In this document: positions 11,569 through 36,990 of the stretch, piece by piece
Position numbering within the stretch: the first letter of the stretch is position 1
Layout of the letters: each line of letters starts with the position of its first letter
Source: Escherichia coli
Lineage (GTDB): Bacteria; Pseudomonadota; Gammaproteobacteria; Enterobacterales; Enterobacteriaceae
DNA: 64,000 bases
Assembly (NCBI RefSeq): GCF_022846255.1
Contig: NZ_AP025682.1
Strand: one strand, 5' to 3'
Notes under the pieces: generated by a model
What the model saw: the letters and a program-made list of their open reading frames with translations, nothing else
The model's database searches: none
Told to the model about the DNA's origin: nothing
Translations under genes and position numbers: made by a program

Positions 11569-13321
11569 CTGTCCCCTCGCCTTGATTAATCACAAATTCA
11601 TTTTTATCGCCCGTTGTCAGCGCATCCGGTTCAATGTTCATGGTACGCAATACGCCGCCCATGATGGCACCAAAGACCGGCGCGGAAACGGCGCCGCCGT
11701 AGTATTTACCCGCCTGCGGATCGTTGATAACAACAACCAGCGCGAAGCGCGGCTGACTCGCAGGCGCAACGCCTGCGGTATAAGCAATATATTTATTGAT
11801 GTAGCGACCATCCGGCCCGACCTTTTTCGCGGTACCGGTTTTAATGGCGATACGATAGCCTTTAATCGCCGCCTTCACGCCGCCGCCGCCCGGTAGCGCC
11901 ACGCTTTCCATCATATGCACCACGGTGCGAACAATGGATTCCGGGAAGACTCGTTCACCGGGAACCGGGGGGTCAACTTTGGTAATCGACAGTGGGCGAT
12001 AAATGCCGTAGCTGCCGATAGTTGCGTAGACTCGCGCTAACTGTAACGGTGTTACCATTAGCCCGTAGCCGAAAGAGAAGGTGGCCCTCTCTATGTCAGA
12101 CCACCGTTGTTTTTGAGGATATAAGCCACTGCGTTCTCCGACCAACCCCAAATTGGTCGCTTTTCCCAGTCCAAAACGTGAGTAAGTATCTACTAACGCT
12201 GAGGACGGCATCGCTAACGCCAGCTTGGAAACACCGACGTTACTCGACTTCTGTAATACCCCGGTCAGGGTTAATTCGCTGTAGCGTGCCACGTCTTTGA
12301 TTTCGTGGCCGTTAATTCGATAAGGAACGGTATTCAGTACCGAGTTTTCCCGCACTACGCCACGTTGCAACGCGGTCATCACCACCATCGGTTTAACCGT
12401 TGAACCCGGTTCAAACACGTCAGTGATGGTACGGTTACGCATCGCCTCTTTCGGCGTGCCACTCAGATTGTTTGGGTTGTATGACGGGCTGTTAGCCATC
12501 GCCAGCACTTCACCGGTGTTGACATCCACCAGCACGGCGCTACCAGATTCAGCTTTGTTAAAGGCCACCGCGTTGTTCAGTTCGCGATAAACCAGCGCCT
12601 GCAGGCGTTCATCAATACTCAGCGCCAGGTTGTGCGCCGCCTGACTGTCGGTGGAAGAGATATCTTCAATTACGCGACCATAGCGGTCTTTACGCACAAT
12701 GCGCTCACCCGGCTGCCCGGTAAGCCATTTATCGAAACTCTTCTCGACACCCTCAATCCCTTGGCTATCGACGTTAGTAAAGCCGATGAGGTGAGCGGTC
12801 ACTTCGCCGGATGGATAATAACGGCGAGATTCTTCACGCAGATGAATCCCCGGCAGTTTCAGTTTTTTGATGTACTCTGCCATGTCAGGGTTTACCTGAC
12901 GCGCCAGATAAATAAAGCGCCCTTTCGGGTTGGCGTTAATGCGGGCTGAAAGCTGATCCAGCGGAATGTTGAGTGCGTTAGCCAGCGCCTTCCAGCGATC
13001 ACCGACGCTGATACCGCCAGCGTCATGCACTTCTTTCGGGTCAGCCCAAATCGCTTTAACCGGCACGCTCACCGCTAACGGGCGACCAGAACGGTCAGTA
13101 ATCATGCCGCGGGAGGTGGAAACTTGCTGAACGCGAAGAGAACGCATGTCGCCCTCTTTCACCAGCATATCCGGGGAGATAACTTGTAACCACGCTACGC
13201 GTCCGAGCAGAAAAGCCAGCGCCAGGAGAATACAGCCGCATAACAACGCAAAACGCCAACTGATAAAGTTGGCATGTTCTTCCTGACGTTTTGGTTTCTG
13301 CGTTTTCGCCGCTGCTTTCAT
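11555..13321 (-). CDS. ftsI: Peptidoglycan D,D-transpeptidase FtsI (PBP3)
   Basis: Track ORF, 588 aa; STVK and KTG penicillin-binding motifs present in translation. Confidence 0.96.
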
Positions 13322-13336
13322 GCGTCGCGTTTATCC

Positions 13337-13702
13337 TTATTTTTGCACTACGATATTTTCTTGTGACGGATCAACATGCTGCATTTGCAGCTTTTCCGTG
13401 GCGATCCTTTCCACCCGGCTATGGTCGCCGAGCGCATTCTCTTCAAGGATCAGGTTGCGCCATTCAATGTCTAAAGCATCTCGCTCCAGCACCAGTTGTT
13501 CGCGCTGAGCGGTCAGTAAACGGGTATGGTGCGCCGTGGTTACCACGGTCACCGCCGTCAAAATAATGCAAATGAACAGGCAGAGTGGCAGCTTCCCAAA
13601 TCGCAAAAGATCGTCACCGATAACACCAGGCAATGCATGGCGCTCGTGGCTTCCCATCGATCCTTTAACTTTGCTTAGAGCTTCTGTCACTCTGCTGATC
13701 AT
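13337..13702 (-). CDS. ftsL: Cell division protein FtsL
   Basis: Track ORF, 121 aa, single TM segment, between rsmH and ftsI. Confidence 0.95.
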
Positions 13703-14640
13703 GCGTTCGTCCTCTCTGCAATACGCAGAACTGAACTACGGGCACGAGGGTTCTCAGCCACCTCTTCTTCGCCCGGCATTAACTTGCCTAGTGCTCGCAG
13801 CTGACGGCCACCCAGTTTTTTGAGCTGCTCTTCAGTCATCGGTAACCCTGCCGGAACTTGCGGACCACGGCTGTTTTCACGCATAAAGCGTTTCACAATG
13901 CGGTCTTCCAGCGAGTGGAAGCTGATGATCGAAAGCCGCCCACCCGGGGCCAGCACGTTGAGCGAGCTTTTTAGCGCCTGCTCTATCTCCTCCAGTTCAC
14001 TGTTTACCCAAATGCGCACCGCCTGGAAGGTACGGGTCGCGGGATGTTTAAACTTATCTTTCACCGGCGTTGCGGCAGCAACGACTTCCGCTAGTTCTTT
14101 GGTGCGGGTCATCGGTTGTTCGCGGTTTCGCTCGACAATGGCGCGGGCAATGCGTTTGGCGAAACGCTCTTCACCATAGGTTTTCAATACCCAGGCGATA
14201 TCGGCTTCTTCTGCGGTTTGTAGCCATTCAGCGGCTGACTGCCCACGGGTCGGGTCCATACGCATGTCCAGCGGACCATCACGCATAAAGGAAAAGCCGC
14301 GTTCAGCATCATCAAGTTGCGGTGAAGAGACGCCAAGATCGAGGAGAATGCCGTCGATCTTGCCGATAAGATCGCGCTCGGCAACGTATTCGCCCAGCGC
14401 GGAGAAAGGTCCGTGGATGATGGAGAAGCGCGGATCATCAATAGTCTTCGCAACGGCGATAGCCTGCGGGTCGCGATCGATCGCCAGCAAACGCCCCTCT
14501 TCGCCAAGCTGCGAGAGGATCAGACGTGAGTGACCACCGCGACCAAAAGTCCCATCAATGTAGATGCCATCAGGACGGATATTGAGGCCATTAACGGCTT
14601 CATCCAGCAGCACCGTAGTATGTTTATAGTTTTCCATCAT
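13699..14640 (-). CDS. rsmH: 16S rRNA (cytosine1402-N4)-methyltransferase RsmH (MraW)
   Basis: Track ORF 13699..14769 trimmed to internal ATG-ATG giving [16 protein letters not shown]... (313 aa), the known RsmH N-terminus; the upstream extension would overlap mraZ. Confidence 0.92.
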
Positions 14641-14641
14641 T

Positions 14642-15100
14642 TTATAGAGACAAGTCCTGCAGTCGCTCCGATAAGTCTCCAGTAGCCAACTGCTCTGCGT
14701 CGATATCTTCCTTGACCTGTTGATGCCAGGTTGTTTCATCCCACAGCTCAAACTTGTTGAACTGTCCAACCAGCATCACTTCTTTTGTCAGCCCGGCATG
14801 TTGCCGCAGTACTGGCGCGATTAACAATCGACCTGCGCCATCCATCTGACATTCGCTGGCATGACCTAACAGTAGGCGCTGCACACGGCGCTCAACCGGG
14901 TTCATGCTCGACAGACGCGATAATTTTTGCTCGATAATTTCCCATTCAGGCAGGGGGTAAAGCAGCAGGCACGGGTGATGAATGTCAATGGTGCAAACCA
15001 TTTGACCGGCAGCGTTCTCAAGCAGCTGTTCCCGATAACGGGTAGGCACTGATAAGCGCCCTTTGCTGTCGAGATTGACTAACGTTGCTCCCCGGAACAT
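14642..15100 (-). CDS. mraZ: Transcriptional regulator MraZ
   Basis: Track ORF 14642..15136 trimmed to [19 protein letters not shown]... (152 aa). Confidence 0.92.
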
Positions 15101-31288: not shown

Positions 31289-31385
<97 letters not shown>

Positions 31386-31394
31386 GGCTATCCC

Positions 31395-32159
31395 CTAAAC
31401 CCCAACCACTTTACGCAAAATATCGATATACACCGGCATCAACGGGTGGCGAATTAACACCACCAGCGCCACCACGCCGATGGCAGAAATCAACGGCGTC
31501 AGCCACAACAAACGACCGCGGGACAAATAATGACTCAAACGGTCAGTCGCTTTACCGCTGCGCCATAACCGCCAGCACAGCCAGCCTCCAACCCACAAAA
31601 ACACCGCTGTTGCCAGCAGCAACCATTTAAACTCACCGCTCTGCATCCCGGCAGGAATATCGATCGCCGCACCCGCCAGAATCCCCGGCAGGAAGTAAAA
31701 CGGTGGCCACAGCAAGCAGCCGATAATATTCGGCGTAATAAATTTTGCCACCGGGAGATCCAGCATTCCCGCCACCATTGGCACCAGCGGACGCGTCGGG
31801 CCGACAAAACGACCGACCAGAATGGTGAACATGCTGTGCTGATGCAGCGCATGTTCGGTTTTATCGAGTAATGCTTTGTTCTTCTTCAGAAATGACCAGC
31901 GATGCAACGGCTTTTTAAAACGCCAGCCCAGCCAGAAGGAGATCCAGTCGCCCAGCAGGCAGCCAATAATCCCCGCCAGCCAGGCGTACCAGAAACTTAA
32001 CTCACCGCTGCCAATCAGTGCTCCCAGCCCCGCCATCAGCACCGTACCGGGTAGAATCAAACCGACCAGCGCCAGCGACTCCAGAAAGGCCACCAATAAC
32101 ACCGCCATCAATGAATACACGGTAGATTGGGTAATAAAGTGTTCCAGCAATGCTTGCAT
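31395..32159 (-). CDS. yabI: DedA-family inner membrane protein YabI
   Basis: Track ORF, 254 aa, MQALLEHFITQSTVYSLMAVLLVAFLESL... Confidence 0.95.
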   Translation of the reverse strand: MQALLEHFITQSTVYSLMAVLLVAFLESLALVGLILPGTVLMAGLGALIGSGELSFWYAWLAGIIGCLLGDWISFWLGWRFKKPLHRWSFLKKNKALLDKTEHALHQHSMFTILVGRFVGPTRPLVPMVAGMLDLPVAKFITPNIIGCLLWPPFYFLPGILAGAAIDIPAGMQSGEFKWLLLATAVFLWVGGWLCWRLWRSGKATDRLSHYLSRGRLLWLTPLISAIGVVALVVLIRHPLMPVYIDILRKVVGV

Positions 32160-32244
32160 AATGTGCCTGTCAAATGGACGAAGCAGGGATTCTGCAAACC
32201 CTATGCTACTCCGTCAAGCCGTCAATTATCTGATTCGTTACCAA

Positions 32245-32292
32245 TTATGACAACTTGACGGCTACATCATTCACTTTTTCTTCACAACCGGC
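32245..32292 (-). pseudogene. Displaced araC 3' remnant (last 15 codons plus stop: AGCEEKVNDVAVKLS*)
   Basis: Minus strand reads GCCGGTTGTGAAGAAAAAGTGAATGATGTAGCCGTCAAGTTGTCATAA, the canonical AraC C-terminus, about 1.8 kb away from the intact araC body. Confidence 0.85.
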
Positions 32293-32313
32293 ACAAAAGA
32301 CACCCTCTGCCTA

Positions 32314-32736
32314 TCATTCGATAGTCTCAAAATATTCCACCTGCAGAGAATCACGGTGCTCAATGATGCAATAACGCTGGAAATTATTTGCATAATCACT
32401 TTTATCATGAAAAAACCATATACAATCGTTTTGTAGACTCGGTCCCATTCTTTTCAAAAAATCTATTAGCTTTGCTTTCTGAAGAAAAATGTTATCTATA
32501 TTTCGCCATGTAACAATCACTCTTGTTTGCATATCATCAACATTATAGTAATAGCTATACTCGGCTACGTTTGATATGTTTGGCAAATTTCGCAAACTCT
32601 CTGGCGTATAAAGGAAAAATGGGGAAAGTTCATGCTGTGTATAGTGATGTTCCTTTGACATCAATGAGATATAAGCATAGAAAAATATAAAGAATAAAAC
32701 TAAAAATGATAATAAAATATAAATATATTTTGACAT
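32314..32736 (-). CDS. Hypothetical membrane-anchored protein, 140 aa (insertion gene B; candidate partner/immunity protein)
   Basis: Track ORF; N-terminal about 21-residue hydrophobic segment YIYILLSFLVLFFIFFYAYISL; ATG 6 nt after the gene A stop (translational coupling); AT-rich codon usage. Confidence 0.7.
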   Translation of the reverse strand: MSKYIYILLSFLVLFFIFFYAYISLMSKEHHYTQHELSPFFLYTPESLRNLPNISNVAEYSYYYNVDDMQTRVIVTWRNIDNIFLQKAKLIDFLKRMGPSLQNDCIWFFHDKSDYANNFQRYCIIEHRDSLQVEYFETIE

Positions 32737-32742
32737 CTCTAC

Positions 32743-33591
32743 TCACGACCTGTGCGGATAATGAGGGTTTAAGAAAAGAAAAAGCGGTCTTTCAAAGGGA
32801 GATTCTGAAAACTTTATAGCTCCCGAACTTGATAATGAACTATACAACTCATGATTTATTCTGTTTTTATCTTTATAATAATTAGTAACAGGTCTATTAT
32901 TATATTGATTATATAACAATGTTGAAAAAGACTCATCTAATGGCTTTATATAATTTAACCATTCTGGAAGCTTCTTTTTTATTAGTTGATTTTTTTTAAA
33001 AGGAGGATGGGTTGTAAATAAGAATGGCGTAAACTCAGTATTTTTAAAATTCCCTGGCGCTCCATATGTATCCCATATTTGTAAGGCTTTTGTGTAAGAT
33101 AAAGGTTTTGCCAATAAAAGTGGATCGGGGCCTGTTCCAAATACACGATAAAAACCAATCAAGTCTGAGACTAAATCTTCTGCACTAAATCCGCTATCAG
33201 TATACCAGTTAAAAATAAATGAGTTTTGCCATGCTTCAAACCTCTTCGCAGTTCCATACATTAACGTTAAGGCAACTCTTGCTTTAAGAGTGGGTGAAAG
33301 ACATGAACGAACCATAACCTTCGTATAAACACCGGTATGAAATGTAAGATCTACTCCTAATATTTTTTTCCGAATTCCCATTTCCTGATGATAATCAACA
33401 GGAAAATACCAATCATGAAATTCATCGTAATATGTTGAAAAATGTTCTTGCTCCAATTTTCTTTTTAATATTCTGGCATCTTGTCCCTGAGCATGCCCCA
33501 AATCGATCCAACCTAACTCTTCGGTATAAACTAATCCATACTTTTTCGTTGTTGCAAATATTCCATCAGTAATATCGTTACGTTTTCTCAT
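32743..33591 (-). CDS. Hypothetical protein, 282 aa (insertion gene A), no family recognised
   Basis: Track ORF 32743..33594 (GTG) trimmed to adjacent ATG; strong Shine-Dalgarno GAGGGGAG 6 nt upstream; no signal peptide or TM segment; Asn/Tyr/Lys/Ser-rich C-terminal third. Confidence 0.7.
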   Translation of the reverse strand: MRKRNDITDGIFATTKKYGLVYTEELGWIDLGHAQGQDARILKRKLEQEHFSTYYDEFHDWYFPVDYHQEMGIRKKILGVDLTFHTGVYTKVMVRSCLSPTLKARVALTLMYGTAKRFEAWQNSFIFNWYTDSGFSAEDLVSDLIGFYRVFGTGPDPLLLAKPLSYTKALQIWDTYGAPGNFKNTEFTPFLFTTHPPFKKNQLIKKKLPEWLNYIKPLDESFSTLLYNQYNNRPVTNYYKDKNRINHELYSSLSSSGAIKFSESPFERPLFLFLNPHYPHRS

Positions 33592-34070
33592 CACAATCTC
33601 CCCTCAAAAAAAACGTATAGCAAATAATATCAATAAGGAAAAATATTATTTTTCAATATTTTTTTGTATACAATTCATTTTATGAATGAATTTACAAAGA
33701 TAGCTGCGCCTGATGCCGCTACACTTTTGCCAGACCATGTTCTCCTCTGAGGGAGTAACTGGCGTTTTTCATAGAATGCCGTACTTTTTTCAACAACTGC
33801 CACATCGAACGGCATTTATGGTGGCGTGAAGTGCCTGCCATAACCGCTCAATGTGGTGTTCCTACGATGAACAAACCGCTTGATATATTCTCCTGATGCA
33901 ACCGGACAATATGTTCATGATGGGTATCCCGATACATAAGCCTTCGTTTTATTTTTACAAAAAGAAATCGTTGTCGATATTTTATCAAGAAAAAAAATAA
34001 TTCAGGTAAAACGATTCAACTAAAAATAACTAAAATTAATCCCCCGTGAAATATATAAATAACGTCAGAT

Positions 34071-34104
34071 GAAGAAAGCAAGGGGGTTCCCCCCCTTCTT
34101 TCTT
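34071..34104. terminator. Near-palindromic G5/C7 hairpin immediately 3' of the truncated araC stop (candidate terminator, possibly bidirectional)
   Basis: GAAGAAAGCAAGGGGGTTCCCCCCCTTCTTTCTT read directly; followed by a T-rich tract on the plus strand. Confidence 0.45.
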
Positions 34105-34105
34105 A

Positions 34106-34951
34106 TTATTCACAACCTGCCCTAAACTCGCTCGGACTCGCCCCGGTGCATTTTTTAAATACTCGCGAGAAATAGAGTTGATCATCAAAACCGACATTGC
34201 GACCGACGGTGGCGATAGGCATCCGGGTGGTGCTCAAAAGCAGCTTCGCCTGACTGATGCGCTGGTCCTCGCGCCAGCTTAATACGCTAATCCCTAACTG
34301 CTGGCGGAACAAATGCGACAGACGCGACGGCGACAGGCAGACATGCTGTGCGACGCTGGCGATATCAAAATTACTGTCTGCCAGGTGATCGCTGATGTAC
34401 TGACAAGCCTCGCGTACCCGATTATCCATCGGTGGATGGAGCGACTCGTTAATCGCTTCCATGCGCCGCAGTAACAATTGCTCAAGCAGATTTATCGCCA
34501 GCAATTCCGAATAGCGCCCTTCCCCTTGTCCGGCATTAATGATTTGCCCAAACAGGTCGCTGAAATGCGGCTGGTGCGCTTCATCCGGGCGAAAGAAACC
34601 GGTATTGGCAAATATCGACGGCCAGTTAAGCCATTCATGCCAGTAGGCGCGCGGACGAAAGTAAACCCACTGGTGATACCATTCGTGAGCCTCCGGATGA
34701 CGACCGTAGTGATGAATCTCTCCAGGCGGGAACAGCAAAATATCACCCGGTCGGCAGACAAATTCTCGTCCCTGATTTTTCACCACCCCCTGGCCGCGTA
34801 TGGTGAGATTGAGAATATAACCTTTCATTCCCAGCGGTCGGTCGATAAAAAAATCGAGATAACCGTTGGCCTCAATCGGCGTTAAACCCGCCACCAGATG
34901 GGCGTTAAACGAGTATCCCGGCAGCAGGGGATCATTTTGCGCTTCAGCCAT
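34106..34951 (-). CDS. araC: Arabinose operon regulator AraC, C-terminally shortened (281 aa; ends ...EFRAGCE*)
   Basis: Track ORF 34106..35002 trimmed to [23 protein letters not shown]...; matches AraC throughout but stops 11 codons early at TAATAA where the AT-rich insertion begins. Confidence 0.92.

Positions 34952-36990
<2,039 letters not shown>

Follow-up and report, generated by a model that had tools for sequence, protein, structure and literature searches.

A putative CapCone-1 toxin and its membrane-anchored partner in a yabI-araC island of Escherichia coli

What is the function of two unannotated genes inserted between yabI and araC in Escherichia coli? The pair lies in a 64-kb stretch of the chromosome of a B2-type E. 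coli strain (NZ_AP025682.1; hereafter the window), and its carriers include the reference pathogens and laboratory standards LF82, NRG 857C, CFT073 and ATCC 25922, in which both genes are still 'hypothetical'. The initial annotation of the larger gene held that its function could not be inferred and that its product could be the effector or the sensor of the module. We propose that the pair is probably a stand-alone antibacterial CapCone-1 toxin together with its cognate immunity gene, forming an orphan effector/immunity pair of a type VI secretion system (T6SS). The role of effector is supported by the evidence presented below, while that of sensor found no support.

The toxin gene encodes a full-length soluble protein

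The two genes, named here for their predicted roles, and the ribosome-binding site of the first are located as follows.

32743..33591, minus strand: toxin gene, 282 amino acids (aa) from the ATG at 33591, stop codon at 32743-32745 (open reading frame (ORF) and translation; RefSeq coding sequence)
33598..33605, minus strand: Shine-Dalgarno sequence GAGGGGAG, with the 6-nt spacer ATTGTG before the toxin ATG (read from the sequence)
32314..32736, minus strand: partner gene, 140 aa, starting 6 nt after the toxin stop codon; predicted immunity protein

The same coding sequence is carried by LF82, where RefSeq labels the product (WP_000044502.1) 'hypothetical protein'. The window protein differs from it by a single substitution, S2R: codon 2 (33586-33588, minus strand) encodes Arg in the window allele (MRKR) and Ser in LF82 and the majority E. 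coli allele (MSKR), and Ser2 is found in at least 90% of homologs. A mechanical ORF list opens the gene one codon upstream, at GTG 33594; the ATG start is favoured, since the homologs all begin with M-S-K/x-R and the RefSeq start agrees.

Much of what the initial annotation had read by eye was confirmed. The consensus-like Shine-Dalgarno sequence stands 6 nt before the ATG as described, and the predicted absence of a signal peptide and of any transmembrane segment is borne out by the lack of a hydrophobic segment (top 19-residue Kyte-Doolittle mean, 0.96). The single Cys is C97, which is kept only within the closest clade of the homolog alignment, and both motifs quoted from the protein, GWIDLGHAQGQD and NWYTDSGFSAEDLVSDLIGFYRVFGTGPDP, are present. 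The alternative that the ORF is a degraded fragment was checked, and the gene is full-length and stand-alone, with existing homologs of 281-285 aa. Its assignment to an insertion module was also correct, as it belongs to a horizontally acquired two-gene insertion and probably yields an expressed soluble protein. A scan directly upstream of the toxin gene found no convincing sigma-70 promoter.

The C-terminal tail had been described as biased in composition and of low complexity. The bias is real, with N, Y, K, S and P making up 48% of residues 191-282, but the low complexity is not, as the entropy of the tail is 3.82 bits versus about 4.0 elsewhere and just one 12-residue window is of low entropy. 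The tail is 53-61% conserved in the close clade, and in the AlphaFold model it consists mostly of folded strands and helices, with predicted local distance difference test scores (pLDDT) of about 82-87 up to residue 250. It is a conserved, clade-specific extension that, according to the model, is predicted to be folded. At the other end of the protein, the family N-terminus M-S-K-R-x-D-I-x-D-G shows a conservation that is unusually high for a soluble protein. This conserved N-terminus might be a secretion recognition element.

The toxin most likely belongs to the CapCone-1 family

Homologs of 281-285 aa with 65-70% identity to the toxin were found in Citrobacter, Salmonella, Trabulsiella and Leclercia, and relatives number in the hundreds across Enterobacterales and beyond: a word-index search returned 300 proteins, and a profile search of 1.84 billion cluster representatives returned 737 clusters (50% identity) at E <=0.001. 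In an alignment of 37 homologs, G27, W28, D30, G32, H33, Y67, Q69, M71, E119, Q122, D132, S133, G134, S136, E138, D139, S142, W173 and D174 are invariant. The statement in the initial annotation that no signature is present was therefore overturned, since the protein carries an invariant His/Glu/Asp set within the motifs G-x5-H and S-x-x-S-x-x-D. In the clade of E. coli, Citrobacter, Rahnella and Buttiauxella, the protein has two additions that relatives of about 230 aa lack: a beta-hairpin insert (some 45 residues, about 51-98) that separates the helix with the His from that with the Glu, and a further 50 or so residues at the C-terminus (about 233-282).

Searches of standard resources gave few leads. 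NCBIfam, PADLOC and PHROGs yielded nothing useful for either toxin or partner (PADLOC, 0 families at E <=1), and a profile search of Protein Data Bank sequences with the toxin family gave 0 matches. Foldseek against AFDB50 returned uncharacterised family members, with an RHS protein among the structural matches, and thus provided no independent functional lead. The only Pfam match of the toxin was to DUF4056 (PF13265), over residues 14-146 and below threshold (E 0.46, 10.2 bits); among the 37 homologs, 21 matched this family at E <=0.1 and one at E <=0.001.

Following this sub-threshold match into the literature led to CapCone-1, a family of the ClaspCone-CapCone-TelC clade in the Lipocone superfamily (Burroughs, Nicastro and Aravind, eLife 2025; PMC12419801), a superfamily to which Wnt, serum amyloid A and TelC are also said to belong. 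The features diagnostic of CapCone proteins in that study are a Gly six residues before the His of helix H2, an xD four before this His and a beta-hairpin clasp; a Glu in H3; an S/GxxSxx before the Asp of H4, with Phe-Ser three before it; and a small residue plus Asn four after this Asp, followed by a capping Gly (PMC12419801). The toxin carries G27...H33 and I29-D30 within GWIDLGH, of which G27, D30 and H33 are invariant in the 37 homologs, and an invariant E119 within RFEAWQ in the predicted helix 100-122. The H4 motif is represented by S133-G-F135-S136-A-E-D139-L-V-S142-D143-L-I-G146, in which all the numbered positions are invariant or nearly so; position 143 is Asp in the toxin and Asn in a minority of relatives. 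In the AlphaFold2 model (pLDDT 84.6, predicted template modelling score 0.83), strands 20-23 and 27-30 immediately precede His33 as a clasp, and E119 and D139 lie in helices 100-122 and 137-151, respectively. The low hydropathy of the protein (0.96, as above) fits the solubility of the family.

Profile comparison gave a consistent picture. With hhalign, the full toxin profile matched 18 minimal CapCone-1 domains with a probability of 95.9%, over H4 only, whereas after removal of the insert (residues 51-98) the match to the same domains covered the whole domain (76 columns, 97.1%, E 5e-11), pairing YTExGWID.H, FE..Q and S.FS.EDL.S(D/N)..G. Moreover, the CapCone-1 table of the authors lists homologs of about 50% identity, for example WP_183847001.1 and WP_064513733.1, which share the EWYFPVDYYQEM...MVRSCLS insert of this clade. 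Together, these data suggest that the gene most likely encodes a stand-alone CapCone-1 domain protein, and a function can be proposed for it after all. It is a new, unannotated member of a family defined computationally in 2025, and not categorically new, since that definition already contained the two-gene layout and the link to Hcp. The activity that the study predicts for the family is directed at lipid head groups linked through phosphate, lipid II being the paradigm (PMC12419801), and the biochemistry predicted here for the toxin follows from it.

Some relatives of the toxin are fused to delivery domains or linked to hcp

A scan of 100,044 species-representative genomes recovered 168 relatives, of which 80 loci were kept; the locus counts given here refer to these 80. 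In about 74 of them, an ORF of 135-158 aa comes next after the toxin gene, usually with a start/stop overlap of 4 or 8 nt. When neighbouring ORFs were clustered without bias, the top recurrent neighbour after generic ABC and LysR families was a ~159-aa protein encoded in 16 loci, which NCBIfam TIGR03344 identifies as Hcp/TssD (E 1e-53 to 6e-59). These 16 loci, all from other species and including the nearest clade outside Escherichia, that of Buttiauxella and Rahnella, have hcp within about 4 kb of the toxin gene, directly adjacent in 14 and at 2.3 and 4 kb in two, while we estimate the chance expectation of hcp in a random 20-kb window at about 1%. In seven loci, including that of Buttiauxella, the closest outgroup, hcp is directly upstream and co-oriented, and in seven Xenorhabdus and Photorhabdus loci it is directly downstream and convergent. 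A tandem arrangement was found in Rahnella bruchi (L020, 10001-15090), where a toxin-partner pair is followed by hcp (13226-13705), a second toxin (13715-~14590) and a second partner (14584-15090).

In more distant relatives, the domain forms the C-terminal end of an Rhs core protein (P0254, P0234) or is placed after an eCIS_core/DUF4157 domain (P0258, E 5e-32) or LysM (P0248, P0262); the contexts of two others (P0145 and P0150) were uninformative. In the network data of the Lipocone study, RHS (94) and DUF4157 (21) are likewise N-terminal fusions of CapCone-1, and HCP occurs eight times upstream and eight times downstream of it (PMC12419801).

Some genomes have two or even three cassettes, diverged paralogs of each other that occupy separate sites on the chromosome, and the overall distribution is patchy. 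This patchy multi-copy distribution, together with the low GC content, insertion sequence remnant and flanking repeats of the E. coli copy (see below), suggests from genomic features that the cassette is mobile. Multi-cassette genomes were observed in Serratia (L029/L031/L051/L062), Erwinia sp. 198 (L045/L053/L095) and a Pluralibacter metagenome-assembled genome (L024/L076/L092).

The partner is most likely the cognate immunity protein

The partner in the window differs by one residue from WP_000049681.1 of LF82 (P0315, 99% identity) and has no match in Pfam. It comprises an N-terminal membrane anchor or export signal (about residues 3-26) followed by a PsbP/Mog1/DcrB-like alpha/beta domain that is predicted to be periplasmic, and the soluble domain is structurally similar to the PsbP/Mog1/DcrB-like fold. 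This assignment agrees with the network of the Lipocone study, in which 'PsbP/Mog1' is found downstream of CapCone-1 in 89 loci (PMC12419801). A BamE-like fold (two-helix hairpin plus three strands), reported more often than any other for immunity proteins of Lipocone toxins, was also considered for the partner and gave no structural match.

All 73 partners analyzed have a hydrophobic N-terminal segment (mean 17-residue hydropathy, 2.63), flanked by average charges of +3.3 before and -0.7 after it. In 73 of 73, positive charge before and negative charge after the segment imply an N-in/C-out topology that places the domain in the periplasm. Homology connects the partners of E. coli, Citrobacter, Salmonella, Yersinia and Serratia, but these proteins diverge rapidly, and toxins with 69-70% identity have partners with 43-46%. 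In 400 randomly drawn pairs of loci, the mean identity was 53% for the toxin versus 31% for the partner, and the toxin was the better conserved of the two in all 400. The partner gene is thus adjacent to the toxin gene, co-oriented and co-varying with it, and its product is predicted to be exported or membrane-anchored, as expected of a T6SS effector/immunity pair.

The predicted periplasmic topology, the faster evolution, the lack of any other candidate in the cassette and the intact state of the partner beside the split toxin of CFT073 and ATCC 25922 all favour immunity as its role, and from these sequence features the partner most likely represents the cognate immunity protein. We also considered that the toxin is as described and its partner is a T6SS adaptor or chaperone like Eag/DUF1795 proteins, which also have the PsbP/Mog1 fold, with immunity absent or encoded elsewhere. 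This appears unlikely: Eag chaperones act in the cytoplasm, while the N-terminal segment and its flanking charges place the partner domain in the periplasm in every one of the 73 loci, and the much faster evolution of the partner, its integrity where the toxin is broken (CFT073) and the absence of another immunity candidate from the cassette all speak against an adaptor.

The cassette lies in a low-GC island of some E. coli lineages

Over positions 31300-35100, the window shares 99.8% identity with LF82 and NRG 857C, among others, and the genes run in the order thiP-thiQ-yabI-[two hypothetical genes]-IS630 remnant-araC-araB. The two genes lie in an island with the following features.

32299..34101, no strand: low-GC island between yabI and araC, 1803 bp, 34% GC versus 54% in the flanks (composition and alignment to MG1655)
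32274..32298, plus strand: left direct repeat, 25 bp, imperfect, 20/25 identical to the right copy
34102..34126, plus strand: right direct repeat, 25 bp, flanking the island
33719..33858, minus strand: remnant of an IS630-family transposase gene, a frameshifted partial pseudogene in the island, upstream of the toxin gene (mapped from LF82 RefSeq, L001 4420-4559)

Alignment to MG1655 showed that the island is missing from K-12, which holds one copy of the repeat (core TTCACAACC.GC.C.AAA) between araC and yabI; the flanking 25-bp repeat may mark a site of recombination or insertion. In Citrobacter and Salmonella, diverged versions of the pair with 69-70% identity occupy the same position between araC and yabI. 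The edge of the island that faces araC coincides exactly with a G+C-rich hairpin and adjoining T-run (34080-34097), which resemble a terminator on both strands.

Among 5426 complete E. coli genomes, 486 (about 9%) carry the toxin/partner pair, always on the chromosome and in single copy. The intact 282-aa E. coli allele forms a cluster of 963 sequences (P0001). Truncated or frameshifted alleles are common in the species (P0006, 202 aa, 385 sequences; P0032; P0037), and P0006 additionally has T131I within the invariant TDSGFS motif. CFT073, ATCC 25922 and strains related to them have lost 1 bp from the toxin gene, which is thereby broken into two ORFs (77 and 190 aa), each annotated as a 'hypothetical protein', while the partner is intact (CFT073 locus L097, NZ_CP058222.1 4315217-4317156). 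Searching the literature for the protein accession and locus tag gave no match.

These broken alleles raise the question of whether the cassette is a decaying, non-functional orphan, in which only the immunity gene is selected, against toxin-carrying neighbours, and the toxin ORF is intact by chance. The size of cluster P0006 relative to P0001, the split in CFT073, the S2R substitution at a near-invariant residue, the IS630 remnant upstream and the lack of hcp nearby would all fit such a decay. However, in the window the toxin ORF is full length, all catalytic-motif residues are intact, the Shine-Dalgarno sequence is strong and the allele is one substitution from the majority allele. In 485 of the 486 carrier genomes the pair is at least 99% identical, so that the decay is specific to lineages, and as an account of the window copy we regard it as quite unlikely.

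Proposed mode of action

We consider it rather likely, from the delivery-type contexts and the properties of the partner, that the cassette encodes an antibacterial toxin which is delivered to other cells, and a periplasmic protein that confers immunity to it. In the scheme that we propose, the toxin would be synthesised in the cytoplasm, out of reach of its substrate. A T6SS encoded elsewhere in the genome would then load it, probably via Hcp or a spike protein, as the hcp linkage in homologs suggests, and inject it into the periplasm of neighbouring bacteria. There, by the family-level prediction, a pocket of His33, Glu119 and Asp139, together with Ser136, Asp30 and Asp143, may cleave or exchange a phosphate-linked lipid head group, the candidates being an undecaprenyl-(pyro)phosphate-linked precursor such as lipid II, or a phospholipid, and envelope synthesis would be blocked. 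That the substrate is a lipid-linked cell-wall precursor is a tentative suggestion, and less likely true than not. Finally, the 140-aa partner, held N-in/C-out in the inner membrane, would neutralise incoming toxin via its periplasmic domain and thereby protect sister cells; the topology, fold, co-occurrence and evolutionary pattern behind this step come from the present analysis, and the binding is presumed.

Several points weigh against this proposal. By tblastn, no T6SS gene or hcp remnant was detected in the 64-kb window including the island, which makes the cassette an orphan in this E. coli lineage, and its secretion by the window strain is suggested by analogy from the hcp linkage in homologs. 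At 282 aa (about 33 kDa, our estimate), the toxin is bulky for a protein carried within the Hcp ring. Its enzymatic activity is predicted at the level of the family, and no CapCone protein has been assayed. The PsbP/Mog1-like partner is annotated in the Lipocone study as a 'toxin effector transport mediating domain' (PMC12419801). In addition, the cassette may be decaying, given S2R at a near-invariant Ser and the truncated E. coli alleles.

Could the pair instead act within the cell that makes it? In such an intracellular two-gene system, either a toxin-antitoxin pair or an abortive-infection phage defence, the Lipocone enzyme would act in the cytoplasm on lipid-linked precursors once the partner, as a membrane sensor, is triggered. 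In favour of this, the toxin lacks a signal peptide, the cassette amounts to a small mobile island of low GC content, and the Lipocone paper proposes intracellular antiviral roles for Min-Wnt and some prok-TelC proteins (PMC12419801). CapCone-1, however, is not among the antiviral families of that paper (PMC12419801), no PADLOC, PHROGs or NCBIfam match was obtained, the adjacency to hcp recurs, and the Rhs, eCIS (extracellular contractile injection system) and LysM fusions of relatives point to export. We therefore judge an intracellular system very unlikely and retain the delivered toxin with its immunity protein.

If this proposal is true, the cassette offers a tractable E. coli model in which a CapCone Lipocone enzyme could be tested biochemically for the first time, and adds a lipid-carrier-targeting activity to the repertoire of T6SS effectors; searching the literature for T6SS effectors that act on lipid II gave no relevant result. 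The CFT073 lineage, with its toxin frameshifted and its partner intact, provides a ready natural contrast between immunity and the published 'transport' annotation. More ambitiously, the toxin could be the first Gram-negative, T6SS-delivered counterpart of TelC, a periplasmic phosphoesterase that destroys lipid II or another undecaprenyl-pyrophosphate-linked carrier and is carried by major lineages of extraintestinal pathogenic and adherent-invasive E. coli, and the partner a new class of membrane-anchored immunity protein and not a secretion adaptor; we hold this fuller version to be possible, though doubtful.

Comparison with known systems

The cassette layout recalls that of Ssp6-Sip6 from Serratia marcescens, in which a small effector without signal peptide is followed immediately by its immunity gene, and cassettes of this type occupy variable chromosomal sites, with some copies beside an orphan hcp. 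The two systems are unrelated in sequence and fold and probably in mechanism. That the toxin is itself a pore-forming T6SS toxin of the Ssp6/Tpe1 type is scarcely credible: such cassettes in Enterobacterales are laid out alike (an orphan effector, about 215-230 aa long, with a small gene after it and in some cases an orphan hcp alongside), and length and coordinate coincidences in the homolog table of Mariano et al. prompted the comparison, but the toxin has no amphipathic or hydrophobic helices. At the sequence level, homology to Ssp6 was ruled out (hhalign probability 0.3% versus the toxin family). The Ssp6 sequence used was a 215-aa ORF (L104, 11795-12442) on metagenome contig Ga0308156_1000051, recovered by searching metagenome contigs with a degenerate pattern encoding VDVDKVKRW and identified by four primer-derived landmarks, namely the start MAKG, QEMANA, VDVDKVKRW and the end EKVSK.

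For the partner, the closest likeness is in fold, to DcrB, PsbP, Mog1 and DUF1795; it lacks sequence similarity to these proteins and has a transmembrane anchor in place of a lipobox. For the toxin, CapCone-DUF4056 is a sister family with the weak match described above, below Pfam significance, and its genomic neighbours differ, being outer-membrane beta-barrels and tandem copies (network data, PMC12419801).

Among the toxins of the clade, only TelC, an LXG toxin of Streptococcus intermedius with lipid II phosphatase activity, has been assayed. According to the 2025 classification, TelC and the toxin have in common a four-helix Lipocone core and a pocket of the His/Glu/Asp type, and the activity of TelC only outside the cytoplasm and its neutralisation by the membrane-anchored or extracytoplasmic TipC resemble what is predicted for the toxin/partner pair. 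No similarity between the toxin and TelC was detectable, the hhalign comparison with the prok-TelC domains of the paper's supplement being not significant, and two hallmarks of TelC are absent: the position of the Asp six residues after the H4 Asp is Ile145 in the toxin, and there is no N-terminal delivery domain, LXG or other, since Pfam matches nothing in it besides the weak DUF4056. TelC is delivered via LXG by a type VII secretion system in Gram-positive bacteria, whereas the toxin described here is stand-alone and found in Gram-negative bacteria.

The nearest known system is CapCone-1 itself, with which the toxin shares all defining motifs, the clasp, the solubility, the stand-alone form followed by a PsbP/Mog1-like gene and, in its relatives, the Hcp linkage. 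It differs in the H2-H3 insert of about 45 residues and the C-terminal extension of about 50 residues of its clade, the yabI-araC copy of E. coli is not described in PMC12419801, and the partner, a transport factor in that paper, is read here as an immunity protein.

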